Source: Squalus acanthias (taxonomy: Eukaryota). Taken from it: a stretch of 64,000 bases of DNA. A program made the translations under genes and the position numbers. How positions within the stretch are numbered: position 1 is the stretch's first letter; each line of letters begins with the position of its first letter. The stretch is taken from assembly GCA_030390025.1 (NCBI GenBank), contig CM059438.1, positions 38,068,001 through 38,132,000 of the forward strand. The letters are read 5' to 3'. The notes below the pieces were generated by a model that ran no database searches, was not told the DNA's origin, and saw nothing but the letters and a program-made list of their open reading frames with translations. Below are positions 1,426 through 47,400 of this stretch, one piece after another.

Positions 1426-1956
1426 TTTGAATAATTTATCAATTATCTCCCCCTTTCTATCTTGATTGTTTTTATATTTTGTATTACACAAGCTATTTAT
1501 GCTGATTTTTTTCCCTCTCCAGTCTAAGATTGTCTTTTTTGAGATTTCCATCTTTGTTTGCAATATGTACTAATCTCAGTTCTGCTTATAGCCACTTAAG
1601 TGTGACTGGTCGGGTGGATATGTGCTAAAATGTTAATGTGTCCTCACTACCCTGTGCTCCCCTCTTCATTTTTTTGTTAATAGTATGAATAAACTACAGT
1701 AAGCAGATTTGTGTTGATGGATCAATAGCATGAATTGGCTGCTGGTCCTAGTGTCAATAGGATCTGAAACATCAATTTGAAACCTTGTTTGCAATGAAGT
1801 GTGGACTAACTATGAAAGTGCAATATTGCAAATAAATCAGTATTTGTCTTATGAAACAAATGTAATTTGCATTTTAAAACTTTCTAGAAAATATAGAAAC
1901 TTAGTAAACAATGTCACATGACTGATACCAGCCAAAGTACAGTGATTATGTCAAAT

Positions 1957-2125
1957 AACAACAGAAAATGCTGGAAACACTCAGCAGGCCAGGCAGCATC
2001 TGTGGAGAGAGAAACAGAGTTAACGTTTCAGGTCTGGGGCCCTTCTTCAGATGCTGCCTGGCCTGCTGAGTGTTTCCAACATTTTCTGCTGTTCTTTCAG
2101 ATTTCCAGCATCCAGTGTTTTGCTA
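1957..2125. mobile_element. Palindromic Penelope-type terminal element (46-bp inverted arms around a hammerhead remnant)
   Basis: Arms 1957-2002 and 2048-2093; same sequence family as 23000-23215 and 38570-38685. Confidence 0.75.
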
Positions 2126-2325
2126 TTGTACAGAGATTGTCAATTGAAACAAGCCCTGAATTGTGCGGCAAGTTCCAAGCATTCTCACATTTGGGGAAAA
2201 TAGAAGCTTTCGGCTAGTTGCATCCAGCATTTATTATACTTTACACTTACACAGGAGTTTTCAATTTTTTTTCAGAAGTCAAAAATAAAATGTAATTTGC
2301 CAATATTTTTTTTTTTCTTAGCACA

Positions 2326-20400: not shown

Positions 20401-23400
20401 ATCTCTTGTGTGCAACTGTATAAAGTATCTTCAGGAATTCCATGTAGAAAATTTCCATAGACACTCCACTGTCCACCATGTTAGTGACCTCCGGCTCAGT
20501 TACTCCATTAGAATCTCTGAAGGTAAACTGATTTAATCACTTTTTAAAGCAAGATATTTGAAACAGCAACCAAGACCAGGGGAAAAGTGTTAAATCATTT
20601 GTTGTAAGAGTACTGGTGGAGAAACTTGCTTTGTTCACAAAAATTTAATTCAAAATTTGTGTATTGACCAGATATTCTGAATTTTTGGGTCAGTGAAATT
20701 TGCAGAATAAATCAGCAGTGTGTGACTGTTAGGGGCAATATAGCATTTGTAGTTTGTTTCAAATGAGAGACTAATATTTAACTCCTCTGACAATATCCAA
20801 TCCACCAAATAGATTAAAATCTCAAGATGGTGTATTATTGGTTTAACCATTAAAGATTATTTCTTCTTTTAAAGCCGGAAGTTCGCTGAAACCACTTGGT
20901 ATTCTAGGAGATTTTGCCGAACACTTAAAGCATTCCGAACAAGTTGCTGTGCATGCACCAGAAAGGATCAGATTTTCTGTCTGGGTTTCATTTTGTGAAA
21001 TATACAATGAAACGCTTTATGATTTACTTGATCCAGTGCCATATAAATGTCAGAAAAGAAAGATCCTTCGTCTTGCACAGGATGCAAAAGGCAACACTTA
21101 TGTGAAAGGTAATTGAGCAACTATTTAACAGCTTTACAATTTTTGCATAATTGGTACTGAAGGAATAACATTGGCTTCTTACAATGTTTCATTCTTTTTT
21201 TTTTTAAGCCTTATTTTCCTGTGACTAGTAACGAGCAGTTTTACTGTATTATTCAGTACAAGATCAGGGTCTTTTCAAAATGTCAGTGTGCTTTGTTTTA
21301 TTTTTAGATCTAAAATGGATTCAGGTTTCCAATGCAGAAGAGGCATATACAATATTAAAACAAGGGAGAAAGCAGCAAAGTATTGCTTCCACAAAAATCA
21401 ACAGTCTTTCAAGTAGAAGGTAATTTACTTAATTAAATTCAATTACTGATGCAAATGTTGTGTAGTAACAGCTATAAATAATCAATTTGCTTAACTTTGG
21501 TGTGTAATTCTGAGCAAAACCGCATGCTTTAAACCAGTAACAGAGCTGAATTTAAAACTTCTCTTAAATGTTTGTTCTACAGCCATTGTACATTTTCAAT
21601 AAGAATTTTGCATGTGGAGGATGGTGGACTTCATGTTACAAGAGTCAGTGAGTAAGTAGTATATTCTAGTTAAGGAGATTTCTTTTCAATGAAAACATGA
21701 TTATAAAAATTAGCAATGAATCCAAGGGGAAAAGTTGTTTGTCAAAAACTCGAGCTGTAGTGAATTTTATATGGTGTAATTAGCAAACTGTGCCTCTTAA
21801 CTATTCTCTCCCAACATTTGTGTGCCATCTTCACCTCCATCCTTGTCCTTTTTTGTGGTTGGATTATGTCCCTGGTAAGTGGTTTTGGGCAATTAAACCC
21901 ATCAAACCAGCAATCTGCATGATTTAAGAAGCTTTCAACTGTAGGCCTACCCTGCTTCTTTTCTGACTTCCCCACCGACCCACCCACTCCACTTCATCAC
22001 GAGGGCTGCTTACAACTGTACATGAAATCTATGGAGGAGCATCACTACAGCTACATCTGTCAGAAGCAATTCAGACAGACTTTGGACTCTGGATAATCCA
22101 GATTCTGGAATTCTATAAAGATTATTTCAAGAATCTGAACAGTTACAATTCACGTTTTCCCTTTTAACTCTTCTAGTTTACAAACGAACTGCACAATTGG
22201 GAATTCTTCACAAAAGGCTTTTTGCACATTATTTTAGTTGTTTTGGTCTCTTAGACTCTTGGAAGACCCTGCTCCTCAGCAGCAAAAACTTCTAATTTAC
22301 ATAAAGCAAAAATTCTTTGAGGGTGTGATAGTTAATCATTATCAAAGCAAGAATATTGTGATATGTCAAAAATGCACAGACCTCCTTAATATGTCTCTAA
22401 ATTTATGATACAACCTCATGAGAAATGCCACAGAAAATGCTCATGAGTAAATAAATACCCATTATGTGTAATATTCGATGTCTTAACAGCTCATGACTGC
22501 AGACCGGGGGATGTAATCGATGCTTATATGCCTCTCGCCCATCTGTAGAATGTGGGATGGATAAAATAGAGATAATTCACACACAAATCAAAAGAAACAA
22601 GTATTGAGCAGCAAACCTGCTGACATAATAACATAAGAATTAGGAGCAGGAGTAGGTCATATGGCCCCTTGAGCCTGCTCCGCCCTTCGGTAAGATCAAG
22701 GCTGATCTTCGACCTCAACTCCACTTTCCCGCCTGATCCCCATATCCCTTGATTCCCTCAGAGTACAAAAATCAATTATCTATGTCTGCCTTGACTATTG
22801 ACTCCATTTAATGTTTAAGGATGAGCGATTTGAATCCATCTTAAAACTGACTTAAAATACACACCTTAGATAACATTTCTATATTTGTCACACTTGACTA
22901 CTTCTAAGCTAACTGGAATAGGGCATTGTTGTCGTAATATGATGCATGTTCTTGTCTGAGCATCAGTGGCATGCCAAAAACAAGGTTATACTAAATCTCA
23001 AAAGCTAAATACTGTGGATGCTGGAAATCTGAAATAAAGAGAAAATGCTGGAAATACTCAGCAGGTCAGGCAGCATCTGTGGAGAGAGAGAAAGAGTTAA
23101 TGTTTCAGGTCGATGACCTTTTGTCAGAACTGGAAAAAGTTAGAGATGTACCAGTTTTAAACAAGTAGAGGCAGGAAAATGGGGGAGGGGAGGGAAAGAA
23201 CAAAAGGGAAGGTCTATAAAACTCTATAGCTTGTATGGATCAAGTCAGTATCCAGTATTGATGTGAAGGCTGTGGGATTGGTTGGGCAGATTAAAATGTT
23301 GCACCAGTACTTTACCTTTACTGGCAGGAGCCGGCTTCATTATTATGTACTTGATAAACCTTGTATAACTGCTGAAGACCGCTTTAATATTTTGACCATG

Positions 23401-29400: not shown

Positions 29401-32400
29401 TCCCTGGTATCATCCTGATAAACCTCCTCTGTACCCTCTCCAGGACCTTGACATTATTCCTAAAGTGTGGTGCCCAGAATTATACACAATACTCCAGCTG
29501 AGGCCGAACCAGTGATTTGTAAAGCTTTATTTGACTTATGTGGTTTTTGTATTCAGTGCCCCTATTTACAAAGCTGAGTATCCCATACACTTTCTTAACC
29601 ACCTTCTCAACTTGCTCTGCCTCCTTCAAAGATTTGTGAATATTGAAAGATCTTTCTATGTAATCTCAGTTTTAAATTTGGTAAGGAATCGAAATTAAGG
29701 CTAATCCTTTCCGGTTTCCACAGAACAATAGACAGTTACAGAATTCAATCCCTAAATCACCAGGAAGAATCCAAAACACCAGGAAAATTTACAAAAATGG
29801 AATTTGACTTAATCAGTTACTGTAAATCAGTTGTCCTGATGTAATCCCCTACTTCTGTTGTTATAAAACATCAAATCCTCCAATTCACTATTAGCAATGT
29901 TACAGGCGGTCTACTAGAATAGAATATATATGAGCAATTAACATTAACAGGGAAAACACAGTTTTGAAATGTACACTAAACTGTTATTTTAATAAACCAA
30001 GTATTTTTCTATACACAGTTCTTTTCTTGTCTCCTCTTAAGCACTGGAAGCTAGCTATATATACTTGGTCAGATCTTAATCTGTTCAACTCTGCTCCACT
30101 CAAAGTTCTCTTTGCTCTTTTTATACACCTCATCCGATTGCCAAGCCTTGTTAGAAATTCATCACTGGCCACCCTGGCATATCTAGAAATGAACCAAAAA
30201 TGAAGTCCATGTATAATTGAAATTGTGTGTTGGACTTTGCAGCATAAGCAATGAGGTAGGCTGAGACAGTGCAGGTGTTTTTAAATGTTATGCCTGATTT
30301 TAGGGGATGGCTATCGCATTTAAACATGATTGAACGGCTTAATTTCACTTTTTAGTTCCATATAAACGAGATTTTCTTGGCAAATCCTGTTTTGGAATTG
30401 TCATATTTCAAATCTTCGAAACTTGTACTGTTTTGAAAATTCTGTTGGCAGTTTGCACTATTTAAGAAAAATTGAAGTATCTTTCTGTTAATCTTCAACT
30501 TCAGTGTGCAAAGCTTACATTAGTTAGAGATCTAACATTTACAATTCAATTTGACCACATTTAAACGTGAGGGATGGTTCTCTTGTGATCTAATGAAATC
30601 TAAAAGGGGAATGCCGAAAACTGAATACTACTGTGGATGCTGAAAGTTATGTATGCCAAACTCATTCAAGTTTCTGTAAAACTTTTTCTTTGTGTCTCTT
30701 AGGACTCACAGCCATGTTCCATTTAGGGAAAGTAAGCTTACTCGCTACTTCCAGGGGTTTTTCTCTGGGAGAGGAAAAATTTGCATGATTGTTAACATCA
30801 GCCAGTGTGCTTCTATGTATGATGAGACGCTGAATGTATTGAAGTTCTCTGCAGTGGCACAAAAGGTAGGTTAGATATGTGAATTGATAAAATTGTTATA
30901 TTCTAATCCATAAACCTTTGTCAGTTGCACAATTGAACAAATGACCGGTACCCATTGGTAGCAGATTCAATAATAACTTTCAAAAGGGGAATTGGATAAA
31001 TACTTAAAGGAAAAGTTTGCAGGGCTATAGGGAAAGAGTGGAACTAATTGGACAGATCTTTCAAAGAGCTGGCACAGACATGGTGGGACAAATGGTCTCA
31101 TTGCACTGTAAGATTCTATGTATCACCGTTTGCGTGATTCATGATTGGAGCTGCAGTTTAAAATTTTTTTTTTTTTTTAAATTGTTTTCATAGGATGTGG
31201 ACGTCGCTGGCAAGGCCAGCATTTATTGCCCATCCCTAATTGCCCTTGAAAAGGTGGTGGTGAGCTGCCGCCTACAACTGCTGCAGTTGGTGTGGTGAAG
31301 GTACTCCCACAGTGCTGTTAGGTAGGGAGTTCCAGGATTTTGACCCAGCGACGATGAAGGATCGACGATATACTTCTAAGTCAGGATGATGTGTGACTTG
31401 GAGGGGAACTTGGAGGTGATGGTGTTCCCATGCGCCTGCTGCCCTTGTCCTTCTAGGTGGAAGAGGTCGCGGGTTTGGAAGGTGCTGCCGAAGAAGCCTT
31501 GGCGAGTAGCTGCAGTGCATCTTGTAGATGGTACACTGCAGCCACGGTACGCCGGTGGTGGAGGGAGTGAATGTTTAAGGTGGTGGATGGGGTGCCAATC
31601 AAGCGGGCTGCTTTGTCCTGGATGGTGTCGAGCTTCTTGTGTTGTTGGAGCTGCACTCATCCAGACAAGTGGAGAATGTTCCACCACACTCCTTACTTGT
31701 GCCTTGTAGATGGTGGAAAGACTTTGGGGAGCAGGAGGTGAGACACTTGCTGCAGAATACCTAGCCTCTGACCTGCTCTTGTTGCTACAGTTTTTATGTG
31801 GCTGGTCCAGTTAGGTTTCTGGTCAATGGTGACCCCCAGGATGTTGATGGAGGGGGATTCGGCAATGGTAATGCCGTTGAATGTCAAGGGGCGGTGGTTA
31901 GACTCTCGCTTGTTGGAGATAGTCATTGCCTGGCACTTCTGTGGCGCGAATGTTACCTGCCACTTATCAGCCCCAGCCTGAACGTCGTTCAGGTCTTGTT
32001 GCATGCGGGCATGGACTGCTTCATTATCTGAGGAGTTGTGAATGGCACTGAACACTGTGCAGTCATCAGCGAACATCCCCATTTCTGACTTTATGTTGGA
32101 GGGAAGGTCATTGATGAAGCAGCTGAAGATGGTTGGGCCTAGGACACTGCCCTGAGGAACTCCTGCAGCGATGTCCTGGGGCTGTGATGATTGATCTTCA
32201 ATTACCACAACCATCTTCCTTTGTGCTAGATATGACTCCAGCCAGTGGAGAGTTTGCCTCCTGATTCCCATTGACTTCAGTTTTACTAGGGTTCCTTGAT
32301 GCCACACTCTGTCAAATGCTGCCTTGCTGTTGAGGGCAGTCACTCTCCCCTCACCTCTGGAATTCAGCTCCTTTGTCCATGTTTGAACCAAGGCTGTAAT

Positions 32401-35400
32401 GAGGTCGGGAGCTGAGTGGTCTTGGTGGAACCCATACTGGGCATCAGTGAGCAGGTTATTGGTGAGTAAATGCCACTTGATAGCTCTGTTGATGACACCT
32501 TCTATGTTGATGACACCTTCCATCACTTTGCTGATGATTGAGAGTAGACTGATGGGGCGGTAATTGGCCGGATTGGTTTTGTCCTGCTTTTTGTGGACAG
32601 GACATACCTGAGCTGTTGTCCACATTGTCGGATAGATGCCAGTGTTGTAGCTGTACTGGAACAGCTTGGCTGGAGGCGCGTCTAATTCTGGAGCACAAGT
32701 CTTCAGCACGATAGCCGGGATTTTGTCATGGCCCATAGCCTTTGCTGTATCCAGTGCGCTCAGCCGTTTCTTGATATCACGTGGAGTGAATTGAATTGGC
32801 TGAAGACTGGCTTCTGTGATGGTGGGGACCTCAGGAGGAGGCCGATATGGATCATCCACTCGGCACTTCTGGCTGAAGATGGTTGCAAACATTTCAGCCT
32901 TGTCTTTTGCACTTGCGTGCTGGGCTCCACCATCATTGAGGATGGGGATATTCATGGAGCCTCCTCCTCCCGTTAGTTGTTTAATTGTCCACCACCATTC
33001 ACGACTGGATGTGGCAGGACTGCAGAGGTTTGATCTGATCTGTTGATCGTGGGATCGCTTAGCCCTGTCTATGGCATTAGTTCATAGCTTTAAGTCAAAG
33101 GCTTTGGTAGTTGTGTCTGATGTCTGCCTATTATTCAAGGAGAGTGTGTTTTAGTACAGCAATTGGTGGCAAGGATGCCTTTTTATGTAGCTAATGTCCT
33201 TTTCCTACTTCATTATTGTATTAAGAAATATATATTCTGGCTCTTCGATAGCTTTCCAAACTCCAGGGGTAAGATGCATTTTCTAGCTTTAGTGGCCAAA
33301 AAAATACTTTACAGTTTGTAATGTCTTTTTGATTTTCATCTCCAAATTTTAATCTTTCACTAGGTTTTTTTGTTCCCTTGTGTCCTGTTGCAGCTCTTTA
33401 AGCCATACATTAGTTTGTCTTCTGCATCAACAATTCCTTTTATGATGCTTTTTATTTGAAGCATAGGAAACTATTTGAGGCTAATTGACAGGTTTGAGAA
33501 AAGGTCCTGTTTGACAAATAGTAACTAAAAGACATTTTACCAGCATATATTCTGCAATTCAATATGTTGCAAAGTTCCGTTGCATCAGATCCTGTTGGAT
33601 AAAACTTAAAGCTTAAGCTCTGCGAGGTTGTCTTTGAAGCTGTTGTCAATGTTTTTCTGGATAAGCTTCAGTTGACCTGTTGGTTTTCTAAAGTGAGATC
33701 TTCACAAGAAGGATCATTGAACTTTGTTGCCTGAGAAAATGTTTTTTTTTTAAAGTCAAGGGTGGGGTAGAGAAGAAAAGTGAGCAACTGTGAAGGGAAG
33801 GGTATTTCCCTGAGGTAGGCTTCAGTTGTATCCTGACAAATTATTCCTTACTAGTTACTGGTGTCAAGCTTTTCAATGTGTTTCTAGTTCCAGTTAGAGA
33901 CTCTTCACACTTTCAGCCTAAGTGAAATTGATTAGGTGTTACAGGAAACTCTTTATTAACCGGGACCGGCACCACGCCGGTCTATCGAAAGTACCGGATA
34001 ACGGAGAGTTATATCTACCGAGGCTATTTTTAACAAAGAAAAATAAATAAATCAAGAAATGTGCAGTATACTTCCGACAGCGCCAGGAGGCCGAGTAGTG
34101 GCACTTTTGAAAACTACCCCTACTGACTAAATCGGCGTTCTCGGACTTGGGATCGGCAACATTGCTGGTTATTTGAGAGGAGTTTTCGGAGTACTCGGCG
34201 TTCGCGGGGACTCTACTGCGACTCTGCAACATTGCCGGTTATTTGAGAGGAGTTTTCGGAGGATGATTTTTGCCAGTTAAGCGAGAATTCCGGATATTTG
34301 GGTGCCGGATAAACACAAGTTTCCTGTATATAGGATTGTAGACCTATAATGGATGATTTATTGTAGTTTTAAGGGATAGCAGATATCTGCATTCTGTCGG
34401 ATTTGCTGGATTCTAGAATCGTGCTAAAGCATGAAGAACTTAATTCAATGAATACAATAGAATACTCCTCATAGTCCCTACGCAAGCCCAAACCTGGATC
34501 ATATTAGTCTGTCAAAAGTGAGAAGTCGCACAACACCAGGTTATAGTCCAACAGCTTTATTTGAAATCTCAAGCTTTCGGAGCGCTGCTCCTTTCGCTCC
34601 GAAAGCTTGTGATTTCAAATAAAGCTGTTGGACTATAACCTGGTGTTGTGCGACTTCTCACTTTTGTCCACCCCAGTCCAACACCGGCATCTCCGCATCA
34701 TGCGTATTAGTCTGTAGTAGGTAAAGGTGTTTAGAATAAGATTGATTTTTTTTTAATGGATTGACACTTTGTAATTGATTTTCAGCTATGTTTATTTATG
34801 AATATTGTTTCCAGATTTTATTGAAGCAATTGAGATGATTGCGGCTGCGCAAACAGAATCTACTTATGGAACCAGAGACCAAGAAGCTAATATAATATGC
34901 ATGTTTCAAAGTGCACTGAACTCACTTTTTTGCATAAGAGCTTAAATTTGGCTTTGTTTCCTCCTGAAGTACTGAAATTTTAATGGACAAATTAGTTCCC
35001 ATCTCTTGTGACTGTCATTTTCTCACTTCATTTAGGATCCATGTAATTGATGGATTTGTGATAAGGATAATCTAATTAATGGGTGTGGATTAGCAGCATT
35101 CCACTTGCATCCTGGTTGCTTTCAGTGATTTTTTTTTTTAGCAGTAGTGAATAGTTTCAATGCCTTCACTGTGCTGTGCTAACCTACTAAAATTGATTTT
35201 TGTTTTCTCTGACAAAAATAAGGACTCACTTTATTAAACTAGTATTTTCTATTCTAGGTTCTTCTCAATAGTTCAAAGCTTCTTCCCACATTCTTGGTTC
35301 CAAAAAGATCAGCCAGAGATGTTTCACTGATCATCAACAATGCTGAAAATGAATCATTTTTGGGAAGAAGACAAACTATGTCTTGGGATGCTAGTCTGGA

Positions 35401-38400
35401 GGATGTTATTGAAGTGGAGGAGGGGGATACTGAGACAATTACTGTAACTGAAATGAAGCGGGAGGAGGAAGAAGAGGAGGAGGAGGAGGAGGAAGAGGAG
35501 AATATAGTAATGAGAAAAAACATCTATGAGGTAAATACATTGTATTTAATCTTACTACTAAACTGAAGAGAATTTTGTGCTGTGTGATATTTAGAAAGAC
35601 TTCTTGAATGGGTAGAAGATGACCATTTGCTAACCAGGTTAACAAACTCTATTTTTAAAAGTTAATGAGAAACCTTTATCTACCTCTGGATATGGACAGT
35701 ACATCTTGCAGAACCCAGGGTACATTCCAATGCATGTGGAGCTACCTCCCATGATCGGTAATGGATATAACTCATCATGGAGAAAGCTTCACATAATAAC
35801 AGAAGAGCAGGTCATTGAAGGATTTGATGTGCTGATGTACAGTACAGTCCAAGGTATAGGATATATGTCCACTTTTTTTATAAAACTCTACCATCTCTAT
35901 AGAGGGTGGGTGACAAAGAACAAAACTGTGTGCCAGCTCAAGATGTTTTGAATGGCCCACGGGTACAGTAGTGTAGTGGTTATGTTACTGGACTTTGAGT
36001 TCACATCTGACCATGGCCGTCTGAATTTTAATACAATTTTATATATTTTTAAAAAGCAGCTGGTACCAGGAAAAGTGACCATGAAGCTGTTGGATTGTCA
36101 TTAAAAACCCAACTTGTCCCCTAATGTCCCCAGTTAGTGCAACTATGGATGGGCAATAAATATTTGCCTTGTCAACGATGTCCACATACCGAGAATGAGA
36201 ATAAAACTTATTTCCTGTGCCATCTGTTAGTTTAGTTTGTTTTCATTCTCTAGTGATTTAGTTGGACAGATTGTTGTTTGAGCTCTTCCCTACACCCCAC
36301 TATGTATGGTTTGTCGTTCACTAAGAAAATGCAGTGGCTATGATTCCTTTTGATTTTAAAGTATTGGTGTGGGAGCACATTCACACAAGTGTACTCTATA
36401 CTTTTGGGTTGTTTTTCTCCCCCTTCTAAACATGGAGCAATATTGCGGGGGGGGGGGGGAGGAGGAGAAAGGTCCAGTCCTGTCTGATGAAAAATCAAAT
36501 AGTTCTTTTTTGTGCGTAGATTTTATTTAATATCTCTTCAGGTGAAGTAAGAGATGTCATTGCAAGAGAATGGAACGTTATTTTCAGTGCCAATAGATCA
36601 GGTATAGCATAGCCAGAAGCAGTTGCTACTGTTCTCCAAAATGCACTTTAACCACAATCTGAGATTTCCCCCCCACCCCAAGCACTGTAATAGCGTGACA
36701 TTTCCATATCCTATATTAATAATCACCACCGTGTTTTTTTTCAAACTAGATCATTTGTGCTCAGTTACAGGCAGTTGAGTTGCAACTACTTAAATGAACT
36801 TTGTTTGGGATCGTTGTAGCCAGCAGAGCAAGGACTTTCATCTCTAAGTTTGTGCTGAATTCAAGCTAAAGTCCCAGGAGTGAGAGAGTACTGCAGTTCC
36901 CTGTGATTTATGCATAGTTTTGATAGTGTTTTCAACATGCTTTATACTCTTTAAATACAGTTTCAGGGAAATATAATAGAAATGTTCTCAAATTAAAGAA
37001 ATTCTTTTGTTAGAATTTGAATGTGCCCTCTATAGTTTTTTAATTGTGTTGCCATATATAGAAACTGCTGCTTTACATACAAGAGCTGAAAAACAGGTTG
37101 ATTGAGGAAAAGAAAGAAAAAGTGATCTTGGAAAAGAAAATCCGGGAAGAAGTTTGTCAAGAGATGGAAAAGTTCATGGCTCAGTTTGAAAATAATTTAA
37201 GGTACAGTCTTGGGTGATTTTTTAAGGAAATGGTCACTTTAGATGTAATTTTGAAGGAAAATCCAAACCTATTAGTTAACAATTTAATACATGAAATTTA
37301 AAAAAAAACTAAATGAGAAACTTCTTTTTATGTGTGACGGGTGGGCACTTTTGCTACAAAGTAACATCTACCCTATACTTTCATCTCCTACAATCCATGT
37401 CTGGAACTGAGATCACTGGTAAAGCCAGAGGAGACCTGACATTTCAAGTCTGAGGGTTTCAGCTTTTCTGCTGTATGTAACCTTGTTCAACAATTGTCTA
37501 TTCCTAAGTACTTTATTGCTTAAATGAAAGAAGAGATCAACAGATTTTATAACATCAGTGTCATAGCTTTTGATCATTTTTGTATCTTCAGGATATTCAA
37601 TTTGAGATTGGTGGCATATACTTCCCCACTCTTATTCTGTAGGGCTGTGTTCTGGAAATTATCCATAGTTTTTTTTCCTTAAGTAGTTCATTCTTAACTA
37701 GAGCATGGGATAGCAGCCTAGTTGTATGCCTCTCTCTCTTTCGTATCCAAGGTGCAACAAAAGAAAAGAAGTGTCCTTCGTATTAGAACTGCCCCAATTT
37801 AAATTAGCTTCTCTAGTGAAGATCGGCGACAAACCAAACGCGCATGTTAAGTTTTAAATCTGTCATATTTTCCAGATAGTTGGAGCATGAACTGCGCCTC
37901 ATATTTTCCAGACAGTTAGAGGATGAACTGCCTCTCACCGGTTTATTTTCTTCTTCCTTTTGCCATCTGCTTAATTACCAGATCAAGTTTAATAACAACT
38001 AAAACTTGTATTTGTAGTAAAACTTCCCAAGGCGCTTCACAGGAGTATTATCAAACAAAAATTTGACACCGAGCCACATAAAGAGATATTAGGGCAGATA
38101 AGATGTAGGTTTTAAGGAGCGTCTTAAAGGAGGAAACGTGTAGCGAGGCGGAGAGGTTTAGGGAGGGAATTCCAGAGCTTAGGGCCTCAGCAGCTGAAGG
38201 AACGGCTGACAATGGTGGAGTGATTAAAATTGGGGATGCTCAAGAGGCCAGAATTGACTTACTTTCCCATAGGCAGCCTCTCTGGTGTCAAACAGCTTTG
38301 TTTTTTGAACACCAAGCTGGCGCACCGATGGTAAGCAAGCCTGTATGTTTAGCATTTCAGACCCCTGAAGTAATTACAGATGCAATGTCTTTAAATAAAA

Positions 38401-41400
38401 CTAAATGAGAACTGAAAGTGAGAAGAGGACCATCAGGGGAGTCTATTCAGCTTTTCTTTAATATTAATCTTAGTCACCACCACCATTTCATTTGAATTTG
38501 TCTGTCATTGTTTTAGCTAACAATTGGTGCCTAACACATTACAACGAGGCAGATTCCATTTCCTGCTTTCTTCCAGTTCTGACGAAAGGTCTTCGACCTG
38601 AAACGTTAACTCTGTTTCTCTCTCCACAGATGCTGCCTGGCCTGCTGAGTTTTTCCAGCGTTTTCTGTTGTTATTTCAGATTTCTTTTATTGTTGTTTTC
38701 AGTGGTTGTGATACTGGGCTAACAAGCTAGTGGTTGGGAGGTAAAATCCCACCATGGCAACTTGTGAAACTGAAGTCAATAAATCTGGTAATTTATAGAC
38801 TAGTACCAGGAAAAATGATCAAAGCTGCCAGATTGTTGTAAAACCCCACCTGTTTCACTAATGTCCTTTTCAATTGGAACATGCTACCCCTAACTGCCTT
38901 GCCTGGGATAGATTCAGAACAGATATAGCAGCTCAAAACTGGGCATCCATGAGGCGCTGTGGGCCATCAGCAGCAGCAGAATTGTATTCCACCACAATCT
39001 AACCTCATGGCCCGGCATATCCCTCAAGCCAGGGGACCAAACCTGGTTCAATAACGAGTGGAGAAGAGCATGCCAGGAGCAACACCAGGTGTACCAAAAA
39101 ATGAGATGCCAACCTGGGGAAGCTGCAACACAGGGCTACATGCATGCTAAAAAGCGGAAGCAGCATGCTATAGATAGGGCTAAGCGATCCCACAATCAAC
39201 GGATCAGATCAAAGCTCTGCAGTCCTGCCACATCCAGTCGTGAATGGTGGTGGACCATTAAACAACTAATGGGAGGAAGAGGCTCCATGAATATCCCCAT
39301 CCTCCATGATGGTGGAGCCCAGTACACGAGTGCAAAAGACAAGGCTGAAGCGTTTGCAACCATCTTCAGCCAGAAGTGCCGAGTGGATGATCCATATCGG
39401 CCTACTCCCGAGGTCCCCACTATCACAGAAGCCAGTCTTCAGCCAATTCGATTCACTCCCCATGATATCAAGAAACCGCTGAGTGCACTGAATACAGCAA
39501 AGGCTATGGGCCCCGACAACATCCCGGCTATTGTGCTGAAGACTTGCTAAGCTGTTCAGTACAGCTACAACACTGGCATCTATCCGACAATGTGGAAAAC
39601 TGCTCAGGTATGTCCTGTCCACAAAAAGCAGGACAAATCCAATCTGGCCAATTACCGCCCCATCAGTCTCCTTCCTCTCAATCATCAGCAAAGTGATGGA
39701 AGGTGTCATCAACAGTGCTATCAAGTGGCATTTACTCACCAATAACCTGCTCACTGATGCCCAGTATGGGTTCCACCAAGACCACTCAGCTCCCGACCTC
39801 ATTATAGCCTTGGTTCAAACATGGACAAAGGAGCTGAATTCCAGAGGTGAGGTGAGAGTGACTGCCCTTCACATCAAGGCAGCATTTGACAGAGTGTGGC
39901 ATCAAGGAACCCTAGTAAAATTGAAGTCAAAGGGAATCGGGAGGCAAACTCTCCACTGGCTTGAGTCATATCTAGCACAAAGGAAGATGGTTGTGGTGGT
40001 TGAAGGTCAATCATCACAGCCCCAGGACATCGCTGCAGGAGTTCCTCAGGGCAGTGTCCTCGGCCCAACCATCTTCAGCTGCTTCATCAATGACCTTCCC
40101 CCCAACATAAAGTCAGAAATGGGGATGTTCGCTGATGACTGCACAGTGTTCAGTGCCATTCACAACTCCTCAGATGTTGCATGCAGGCATGGACTGCTTT
40201 ATTAAGACCTGGACGACGCTCAGGCTTGGGCTGGTAATTGGCAGGTAACATTCGCGCCACAGAAAATGCCAGGCAATGACTATCTCCAACAAGCGAGAGT
40301 CTAACCACCGCCCCTTGACATTCAACGGCATTACCATTGCCGAATCCCCCACCATCAACATCCTGGGGGTCACCATTGATCAGAAACTTAACTGGACCAG
40401 CCACATAAATACTGTGGCAACAAGAGCAGGTCAGAGGCTAGGTATCCTGTGGCGAGTGTCTTACCTCCTGACTCCATTGATTATAATTACTGTAAAATGT
40501 TGGAGTTCTACAGTGACCATTAATTGACTGAATTAATCTGTATGATTCCTCTCTGCCTATTTTTTAATTCCCCATCCCCTTTTTCTGGATGCCTGTCCAC
40601 CTCTTATTTTTCCGTCCTTAAGCGAGGGTCTTCACCTAAAACATAACCTTGCTGTATTCTCCATGCATGGTGATTGCCCTGCTGTGGGTTCCCAGCATTT
40701 TTTTTTCCAGATTTCCACCATCTCCGGTATTTTGCTTTTCACTTGAATTGTTTCACCTGTGTTTTTTGTTTATAGTGAGCATGTAAAGGAAGAAAATCAG
40801 TTCACTGAGGACAGAATTGAAAAACGCAATGAAATATTTCAAACTTTGGTCAAGACGTGTGTTGCTATTGACAAGAATGATGCTGTTACTGAAGTCTGTA
40901 CTGAACCAGAAGTCAATCGGGTATGTGTTTTGCAGTTGTTTTCAACAGAAACTATTGCTTTTTGAGATGTTCTTCTGTGCTGTTCATTGACAAACCATTT
41001 TCACAAATTCCAAGTACTCTTGCTAATCGAAACCTAGTACTGGGTGTCCAACCCTATCCAAATCTGCCTTGGTTCACAATTTCATCTGGCTCATCTCGCA
41101 GTTTTGGAGTCATCGTCCTCAAAGAAAACTCTGGCCGGAATTTTCTTGGGGGGGACGGGGCCGGGGGGGGCTATGGGAAATTTGATTTTTTTGAACCGGG
41201 TCAGGATCCCGCCGCAACGTGCTTTTCCCAATGTTGGGTCTGTCGGCACTGAGCAGACCCTACGGGCAGCGGTGGGCAACCCAGTTAAACTCATTAGCAT
41301 CTAGTTGACGGATCATTAACAGGCTTTTTTAACTTGCCTTTTCACTTTAACTTCATGGCCACGGGACCACGCTGTTCGGGGACCACGGCTGTTAACCTGA

Positions 41401-44400: not shown

Positions 44401-47400
44401 CTACAGGCCAGTTAGCCTGACATCAGTCGTCCGGAAAATGCTGGAATCCATTATCAAGGAAGTGGTAACGGGGCACTTGGAAAGTCATAATATGATTAGG
44501 CAGAGTCAACATAGTTTTATGAAAGGGAAATCGTGTTTAACAAATTTTAGTTTTTTGAGGATGTAACTAGCAGGCTAGATAAAGGGGGAACCAGTGGATG
44601 TAGCATATTTGGATTTCCAAAAGGCATTCAATAAGGTGTCACATAAAAGGTTGCTATGCAAGATAAGGGCTCATGAGGTTGGGGGTAACATATTAGCATG
44701 GATCGAGGATTGGTTAACGAGCAGAAAACAGAATAGGGATAAATGGCTCATTTTCCGATTGGCAGGCTGTAACTCGTGGGGTGGTCAAGGATCAGTGCTT
44801 GGGCCTCAGCTATTTACAATCTATATTAATGACTTTGATGAAGGGACCGAGTGCAATGTATCCAAGTTTGCTGACGATACAAAACTAGGTGGGAAAGTAA
44901 CCTTTGAGGAGTACAGAGTCTGCAAAGGGGTATAGACAGGTTAAGTGAGTGGGCAATAAGGTGGCAGATGGAGTATAATGTGGGGAAATGTGAAGTTATT
45001 CAATTTGGTAGGAAGAATAGAAAAACAATACTTTTTAAATGGTGAGAAACTATTAAATGTTGGTGTTCAGAGAGATTTAGGTGTCCTTGTACAGGAAACA
45101 CAAAGTCAGCATGCAGGTACTGCAAGCAATTAGGTAGGCAAATAGCATGTTAGCCTTTATTGCAAGGGGGTTGGAGTCGAAGAGTAAGGAAGTCTTGCTA
45201 CAATTGTATAGAACTATGGTGAGACCACACCTAGAGTACTGTGCACAGTCTTGATCTCCTTCTCTGAGGAAGGACATACTTGGTTTATAGACGGTGCTAC
45301 GAAGGTTCACTAGATTGATCCCTGGGATGAGAGGGTTGTCCTATGAGGAGAGGTTGAGTAGATTGGGCCTATATTCTCTGGAGTTTAGAAGAATGAGAGG
45401 TGATCTCATTGAAACATTTAAGATTCTGAGGGGGATTGACCGGGTAGATGCATCCCCTGGCTGGGGTATAGTCTCAGGATAAGGGGTCGGCCATTTAAGA
45501 CTGAGATGAGGAGAAATTTTTTCACTGAGGGTTGTGAATCTTTGGAATTCTCTATCCCAAAGGGCTGTGGCTGCTGAGTCATTGAATATATTCAAGGCTG
45601 AGATATAGATTTTTGGACTCTAGGGGAATCAAGGGATATGGGGATCGGGTTGGAAAGTGGAGTTGAGGTCGAAGGTCACCCATGATCTTATTGAATGGTG
45701 GAGCATGCTTGAAGGGCTGTATGGTCTACTCCTGCTCCTAATTCTTATGTTCTTTTGGCCTCTCTGGCTCAACCCAACCTTTTGCCTCAACCCCTTGGGT
45801 CAGTGTAGATCAATGATAGTACTCACTTGGCTGATCAGTGCATCTTGGTCTCTAACACCTGATGGGTGCAGAACTTCTCACCTCTTTCCACCCCCCACCC
45901 CAACACAGGCTTGAGCAAAGCGTTTTCCCATAGCTGCTGAAGTGGCGGTGATTAGACATAAATTCAGACATCAAGTAGGAAGCGGTTCTGTTGATATTGA
46001 AGGCACCACACAATTGAGACATCAACCACTGATTCACTGTAGTCACATCCTGGCTACCTCTGGCCAATTTTTGTGCAGAGTTCTTCTAGAGACTATGTTC
46101 AGATGCCATGCTTTGATGCTATTTTTCAAAGAGCTCGAATAGAGTGCCTTTACTATCTGAACATTTGAGTAGGTTTACATAATGTTGTTTTTAAATTTCA
46201 GAATTAGAGGCGTATGAAAAATTGACTGAAGATGAGGAAAAATTGAGGGAAGCTCATAAGGTGACTGTTTTAACACTATCTGAAGACTTGACTTCTACCA
46301 TTTTCTCAAGCTGCATTTTGTTTTCATTTTGGAAATGGTGTTCACAGTTTTGGTATTTTTTATTTAAGAAAGCTATTTGAGAGTAAAAGTTAAAAAGCTG
46401 CATTACATTTATCTTCCTATCACATGATTTCATTGTAAGCATCTTGGAATTCATAGTGGTGAACTAGTCAGATTTGTTGCCCTATTCTGTGTGAATTGTT
46501 AGAGCTTTCTAACACTTTGTTCTGTTTTAGATGCATCTTTGACCACAATTTGATTTTTTAGCAGTGAGACATTTTCTTTTAACCTAATGTTTAGTCAAGA
46601 ACTTGCATTTATAATGTGCTTTATCACCTCTCTCAAATATCCCAAAGAATTTCACATAATTAATTACTTTGCAGTGCAGTCACTGTTATGGAGGCAAATG
46701 TGGCAGCCATTCTGCACAAAGCAAAATCCCACAAACAGTGAGGTTAATGATCAGTTGAACTATTTTGGTCAGCATAATGTTTGCAGGATGCAGATAATTC
46801 CTGTTTTTTGAGTCGTAATGTGGGATCTTCAATATACTATGGAGTGACAGACAGGGCTTTGGTTTAGTACCTCATCTGAAGGATGGCACCGCAGCACTCC
46901 ATACTGCACTGAAGTGTCAACCTAGATTATGTACTGAATTTGTAGCCTGGGGCTTGAGTTCACAACCTTCTGATTCTGATGAGAGTACTACCAAATGAAC
47001 CAAGCTGACATTGTTTGAAAACTTAAAAGTGCAAGAAGCTCATAGTGGTATGACAGTCACTCTCCGTAAGTTAGCTCTCTTTTGAAATAAAAACTGAAAA
47101 TGCTGGAAATACACTACGGGATAGTCAACATCTGAAAGAGAAAGACCTGTTAAGAATTTCAGGTTAAAACCTTTGTATGACTTTTATGGTCAGAGCATTA
47201 AGATTGCTGGAAATTACCAAAGCAACAGGTGGAGGTGAAGAGTACACAGATGGTAATTATTTTCACAGAAAAGATAGCAATTGGGTGAAATAGTCTGTAA
47301 CTTTACTTTTAAACCACAGCAAAGAGATGAAAAATCTCTTTGCTATACAAAGATCATCATAGGTAGAGATGTGAAGAAATATACGAGTTTAAAAATTGCA

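Follow-up and report, generated by a model that had tools for sequence, protein, structure and literature searches.

The stretch of Squalus acanthias DNA analysed in this work (64,000 nucleotides of contig CM059438.1, hereafter the window) is occupied from position 2326 onwards by KIF20B, a gene on the plus strand that extends to about 92,470, as was determined by protein mapping over the window and the neighbouring DNA. One long exon inside the window gave 21 matches to shark and ray KIF20B (79% to Heterodontus). The first-pass annotation had placed a hammerhead ribozyme in the sense strand of the intron between coding exons 13 and 14, and the exon map bears this placement out: the intron spans positions 37202-40775, and the predicted cut precedes the acceptor of exon 14 by 2,168 nt. 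The motif is carried by a short end-piece (pseudo-LTR, pLTR) of a Penelope-like element, and further pieces of the same family are scattered over the window (Table 1). In the inverted insertion upstream of the start codon the minus arm keeps the core boxes, and the 5' strand of its stem I is gone at the inversion junction. The only other KIF20B copy in sense orientation with intact core boxes (L047) was found outside the window, ~52 kb downstream in the last introns (about 90,830-91,045 in extended window numbering), where it forms part of an inverted insertion and has a mismatched stem I. Besides these pieces, two LINE-type reverse transcriptase fragments (31728-33077 and 39165-40475; 1.35 kb each, 90% identical, in opposite orientations) occupy KIF20B introns 11 and 13 and could pair in the pre-mRNA.

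Table 1. Features of the KIF20B locus and of related loci; positions are those of the window unless a locus is named.
Feature	Position	Strand	Remarks
Inverted two-arm miniature insertion, same family	1953..2128	.	Roughly 200 bases before the start codon of KIF20B
Antisense copy, same family	23024..23208	-	Core broken (G8 to A), palindrome broken
KIF20B coding exon 13	37062..37201	+	Upstream of the insert; protein mapping
5'-truncated end-piece (pseudo-LTR stub) of Neptune-like Penelope element	38553..38684	+	132 bp; five other pieces in the window
Minimal type I hammerhead	38575..38611	+	Stem I, core, extra A, 5-bp stem II, palindromic helix III stub; full-descriptor match
Stem I	38575-78 paired with 38608-11	+	Direct reading of the sequence
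Core box C3-A9 (CUGACGA), intact	38579..38585	+	Sequence reading, per-position profile
Extra A	38586	+	Sequence reading
Stem II hairpin	38587..38599	+	5 bp (38587-91 with 38595-99), 3-nt loop, closed by A10.1-U11.1
Core box G12-A15.1, self-complementary AACGUU and cleavage triplet GUU	38600..38607	+	GAAA 38600-03, palindrome AACGTT 38602-07
Predicted cut	between 38607 and 38608	+	Sequence reading
Old degenerate sense copy	40627..40715	+	About 69% identity, without hammerhead core
KIF20B coding exon 14	40776..40920	+	Protein mapping; exon end approximate
Old degenerate antisense copy	47083..47174	-	About 73% identity, without hammerhead core
Second-family hammerhead	L043:7342-7378	-	About 2.6 kb before the window; others in L089, L228, L132, L148
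Full-length element L302	L302:1391-4783		Two hammerheads, open frame

The 37 bases claimed earlier, with all parts of a minimal hammerhead and a predicted cut after 38607, are present as described at 38575-38611 of the plus strand. The core boxes alone occur at chance level (8 matches in the window vs 7.4 expected), and the full descriptor, which combines the core, both stems, the palindrome and the UH of the cleavage site, matched only here in the window and had no match in shuffled window sequence totalling 6.4 Mb. Inside the window the motif is also the only sense copy with an intact core, as had been stated, judging by both the full descriptor and the repeat search. According to the folding analysis, stem II pairs in its native context with a probability of 0.94 or more (above 0.93); the folding z-score of the 37-mer (-1.43) is by itself no evidence. 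The stem II closing pair is A-U instead of the usual G-C, and the cleavage site is GUU. The Rfam search that had been proposed as a check did not bring the expected match: in the window no model matched at its gathering score, and at 38300-38900 no hammerhead appeared at E values up to 10. By this search the motif does not fall among the canonical Rfam type I hammerheads, a group marked by a model match, helix III and loop-loop contacts.

The stub shares 96% identity with the pLTR at locus L055, which continues into the element ORF, and 92% identity with both pLTRs of the full-length element L302. No target-site duplication of at least 5 bases was found within 30 bases of its ends. Copies of the family have the 3' end in common and are truncated on the 5' side. 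Across the genome of 3.7 Gb, a 35-base pattern of the motif has 20,145 exact matches (forward 9,992, reverse 10,153; control 0), to which non-overlapping variant patterns add 3,324 copies with a GUC site and 230 with a G-C closing pair, so that all three patterns together account for at least 23,699 copies; three anchors downstream of the hammerhead have 37,772, 6,733 and 6,865 exact genome matches. The window stub is an ordinary member of this Penelope-type family of over 20,000 nearly identical copies, and the special standing implied for it finds no support, its hammerhead being the commonest variant among more than 20,000 intact-looking copies. The density of 5.4 exact copies per Mb gives an expectation of 0.24 sense copies per 90-kb gene by the exact pattern alone; one sense copy in the 90-kb KIF20B is thus about what this density predicts. 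In the whale shark, 30% of Penelope-like elements lie within introns (bioRxiv 10.1101/443036, in excerpt). If this figure is borrowed, the genome would hold, as a rough inference, ~3,500 intact-looking copies in intron sense strands. No published description of the shark family was found in the literature searched, i.e., that outside subscription journals, Repbase and Dfam; the supplements of PMC4209133 and bioRxiv 10.64898/2026.07.22.740005 may list it.

The link of the repeat to Penelope-like elements, proposed initially from the shape of the motif, is established by its parents. Upstream of the motif, longer copies carry a frame for a GIY-YIG endonuclease (Pfam E 1.7e-5, above cut-off) and a reverse transcriptase, and the start of this frame occurs 512 times in the genome. 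Among the 21 long loci examined, three (L192, L301 and L302) combine both motifs in one uninterrupted frame of 1,002-1,004 codons, which lies between two hammerheads spaced at about 3.2 kb; in a fourth the frame has 943 codons and one hammerhead is present. The Pfam matches of the L302 frame are significant yet just below the curated cut-offs (RVT_1 24.5 vs 29.6, GIY-YIG 21 vs 22.6); in L302 and L014 the endonuclease is preceded by a CX4CX2C linker. The 3,324 copies with a GUC site form a homogeneous subfamily that includes L302, and the existence of full-length open elements together with such a subfamily makes a young or still active family likely. In tandem order the hammerhead lies about 280-310 nt past the stop codon, and the likely start codon is 172 nt downstream of the first base of the hammerhead. 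Short tandem units, each comprising a pLTR with the ORF start and a hammerhead, were revealed at L296:884-1728, L189 and L297 with spacings of 386, 322 and 310 bp; they are retrozyme-like and, of the natural sequences, would suit a dimer assay best. A 344-base back-joint of the tandem kind in contigs of two runs of other organisms is a weak sign of the same arrangement. One of the long elements adjoins a GC-rich open frame of more than 435 codons (L031:8525-10000, minus strand), which resembles the C-terminal part of a transposase-derived gene.

The behaviour of the family was analysed on 157 copies picked via the anchors downstream of the hammerhead, hence with no bias for the core: 97 distinct copies from the first 100 places of the 37,772-match anchor and the first 30 each of the 6,733- and 6,865-match anchors. 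All of them lie in the initial 15 Mb of a single contig, and some represent the paired arms of a single insertion or have been duplicated locally. The motif is spanned by 106 of the 157, of which 18 were discarded for indels or for more than 9 differences and 88 profiled. The core is intact in 68/88 copies, and both stems and the palindrome are also kept in 51/88; the window 37-mer is the commonest variant (12/88). Frequent variation is limited to N7, position 10.1 (A in 53/88 and G in 35/88, opposite mostly U), loop 2 and H17, while the extra base between positions 9 and 10.1 is A in all 88. The change of G8 to A, seen in 9/88 copies, is consistent with CpG decay following insertion.

A second, unrelated Penelope-like family carries, behind a GIY-YIG frame, the same hammerhead layout with different stems, AAGCUU in place of AACGUU and a G-C closing pair. 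In 15 variants of the two families, 99.4% of cells are paired and 8 of the 11 pairs, the palindrome included, are changed on both sides (slid controls 46% at most); the set was hand-chosen and the signal comes mostly from one between-family event per pair, so that the independent events are few. Because the stems and the palindrome covary across two families, the fold is, as read from the sequences, kept by selection on element lineages, and this statement concerns the elements and not the host.

The ends of the insertions were mapped with the first base of stem I (38575) as +1, so that the predicted cut follows +33; short microhomologies blur each mapped end by a few bases. A pile-up of 5' ends at the predicted cut was looked for and rejected, since only 3/157 ends fall within +32..+36, one of them exactly at +34. 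As many as 150/157 copies extend through the predicted cut, which means that the insertion templates were uncut or re-ligated; circles re-ligated from cut RNA would likewise yield copies that read through the site. A different edge emerged at -3..+3, where 23/157 copies begin (16 simple ends and 7 flagged inversion junctions). The rate of 5' ends is 2.9% per base there vs 0.3% per base in the adjoining 56 upstream bases (23/39, binomial p 7e-13, for copies that are not fully independent); 35 further copies end inside the motif, mostly at inversions. The same +1 edge appears in other organisms, namely in 62 contigs of one run, with unrelated flanks just before 38575, and in 15 contigs of another at +1/+2. 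It could be a transcription start, an exon start after CAG, or a stop caused by self-folding of the cDNA. The sequence at +1 fits an initiator consensus. An upstream exon shared by the copies that begin at +1 was considered and rejected, their flanks being unrelated by eye, and a transcription start or a cDNA fold-back stop is favoured over an exon start. No description of this edge was found in the literature searched, outside subscription journals, Repbase and Dfam. The 3' ends form two clusters 30-45 nt apart (77/157 and 64/157), a pattern that two internal priming sites would produce (PMC11167929).

The start of the window copy lies 22 bases upstream of +1, and the copy accordingly came from a read-through template. 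Apparently, the reverse transcriptase of the parent element was primed about 110 nt into a pLTR, on a read-through (tandem) transcript with an uncut hammerhead, and would have halted after 132 nt, leaving the stub at 38553-38684.

Whether such a stub would cut the RNA that carries it was assessed by folding. In the minimum-energy fold of the monomer (-9.1 kcal/mol) the two core strands are paired with each other; the fold with both stem I and stem II has a probability of 0.002, and stem I forms in native context with a probability of 0.01-0.06. The double-hammerhead dimer reaches -9.7 kcal/mol vs -18.2 kcal/mol for two such rods, i.e., the active dimer is 8.5 kcal/mol worse; for other variants of the window family this gap is 5-9 kcal/mol and for the second family 2.5 kcal/mol. 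Nearest-neighbour energies of this kind omit tertiary core contacts and protein help. Published assays point in the same direction. The minimal hammerhead of Schistosoma showed no cleavage as a monomer and low cleavage as dimers (PMC4209133, in excerpt), and among Xenopus dimer elements one of nine cut in vitro (bioRxiv 10.64898/2026.07.22.740005, in excerpt). The hammerhead of the Anolis element was cleaved only with the element protein; core mutants had no effect on insertion, and RNA-seq ends at the site were absent (PMC11167929). Since the modelled monomer rod is inactive and published minimal-hammerhead monomers did not cleave, cutting of KIF20B RNA by the lone window copy appears unlikely, and the earlier suggestion that the nascent transcript is cut there stands unsupported, the predicted fold and the published assays both speaking against it.

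Low but real cutting of the nascent KIF20B RNA, via a trans-dimer or via an element protein folding the retained tail, most plausibly in the germ line, nevertheless deserves consideration, improbable as we judge it. The core, stems and palindrome of the window copy are intact, and a copy with so perfect a sequence would be competent given a partner or the element protein. Partner copies are abundant in principle (20,145 pattern matches), but helix III amounts to just 4 bp in trans, and the energy deficit of the active dimer relative to two inactive rods stands against such pairing. The second sense copy in the same gene could serve as a partner, except that it lies 52 kb and many introns away and its stem I is mismatched. 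A related hammerhead is protein-assisted in vitro (PMC11167929), and an intronic ribozyme can reduce full-length mRNA, as in Cpeb3 (PMC10919898, in excerpt). Against this, the window copy would need to act within a short time and with a probably weaker site. The acceptor is 2.2 kb away, or about a minute of transcription, vs a half-life of 2-3 min and 9.9 kb in Cpeb3; the site is GUU, which would be less active than GUC, and stem II is closed by A-U, which would be less active than G-C.

Another route by which the stub could affect KIF20B, if at all, is splicing, with cryptic acceptors provided by three sense sequences that combine a pyrimidine tract with CAG. The AG dinucleotides at 38575-76, 38628-29 and 38678-79 each follow a pyrimidine tract, a donor-like AG/GTAAA near 38742 makes a cryptic exon possible as a candidate by sequence, and an intron of D. 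virilis Penelope ends at hammerhead helix I (PMC4209133, in excerpt). We give this explanation a very small chance. Contigs of four runs on the pLTR-ORF junction (other organisms, contigs only) contain no GT..AG joint ending at the hammerhead, and the genome tolerates thousands of such copies. Next to no weight is given to a domesticated regulatory ribozyme of KIF20B similar to the conserved intronic hammerheads of amniotes. The window copy is intact, sense and intronic, as such a ribozyme would be, but it is young (96% to other copies) and identical over its 37 bases to the commonest variant of the family, it lacks a stable helix III, and there is no sign of locus-specific conservation. Contigs of four runs of other organisms at 38300-38900 cover the repeat and leave its flanks uncovered, and are therefore silent on orthology as well as on RNA ends.

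Taken together, these considerations make it highly probable that the motif is the minimal hammerhead of a 132-base Penelope-like end-piece and a passenger that is spliced out with its intron uncut. The hammerhead would be kept by selection in the element lineage, where it would cleave only when present as a tandem dimer or assisted by the element protein; a lone intronic copy would have no partner, and no time before splicing. A far-reaching extension, which we regard as a decidedly long shot, is that thousands of intact sense intronic hammerheads, silent alone, are switched on by the Penelope protein, so that bursts of the element nick host pre-mRNAs, that of KIF20B included; element RNA would then start at the first base of the ribozyme, and solo copies would be run-off copies of uncut transcripts.

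The single site in KIF20B is of little importance by itself. The family, with its more than 20,000 intact-looking copies and intact parents, offers the numbers needed to ask what Penelope hammerheads do, and its copy numbers allow asking whether hosts purge hammerheads from the sense strand of introns. Judging by the sampled insertion ends, RNA beginning at the cut is not the template from which copies arise, and cDNA synthesis is brought to an end by something at the ribozyme's first base.

Among known systems, the intronic ribozyme of Cpeb3 (PMC10919898, in excerpt) and the amniote RECK hammerhead (PMC6155905, in excerpt) share with the window copy their location on an intron sense strand. 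In contrast to these single-copy, conserved and active monomers, the window copy belongs to a young high-copy repeat without helix III. The short tandem pLTR units of the shark genome (386, 322 and 310 bp spacing) resemble the non-LTR retrozymes (bioRxiv 10.64898/2026.07.22.740005, in excerpt); the latter comprise at least two tandem hammerhead units, whereas the window copy is a lone stub and no tandem array.

With the Anolis Poseidon element PAc (PMC11167929) the shark family shares the two 3'-end clusters to be expected from two internal starts of reverse transcription, and insertions derived from uncut RNA. PAc belongs to a different clade, and its ORF begins inside the hammerhead, whereas the likely start codon of the shark element comes 172 nt after the first base of the hammerhead. 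With the Neptune EN+ elements, as described in the excerpted text of PMC8557442, the shark element shares the reverse transcriptase, the CX4CX2C linker and, at the C-terminus, a GIY-YIG domain with a Cys/His motif, as well as pLTRs and tandem and inverted insertions. The linker pattern CX2-5CxxC is present, but it marks Neptune and Nematis alike, and the clade of the shark element is here tentatively placed by its linker.

The closest likeness is to the minimal hammerheads of metazoan Penelope-like elements, as far as the excerpted text of PMC4209133 describes them. Both are of type I, with an extra base between 9 and 10.1 and a short stem I; both have a palindromic 15.2-16.2 (CG here, GC in the second family) and no loop 3; both reside in the flanking repeats of an element with a reverse transcriptase and GIY-YIG; and both are mostly dispersed as single copies, with opposite-strand pairs 100-700 bp apart. 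The G10.1-C11.1 pair, highly conserved there and not obligatory, is the one typical feature that the window motif lacks, the shark family having A-U or G-U at this place and G-C in 230 copies only. The shark family further differs in its 5-bp stem II and mostly GUU site, and it counts at least 23,699 copies vs about 4,000 in the coelacanth and 9,000 in Xenopus. With these differences, the window motif is one of the minimal hammerheads of Penelope-like pLTRs and would work as they do.
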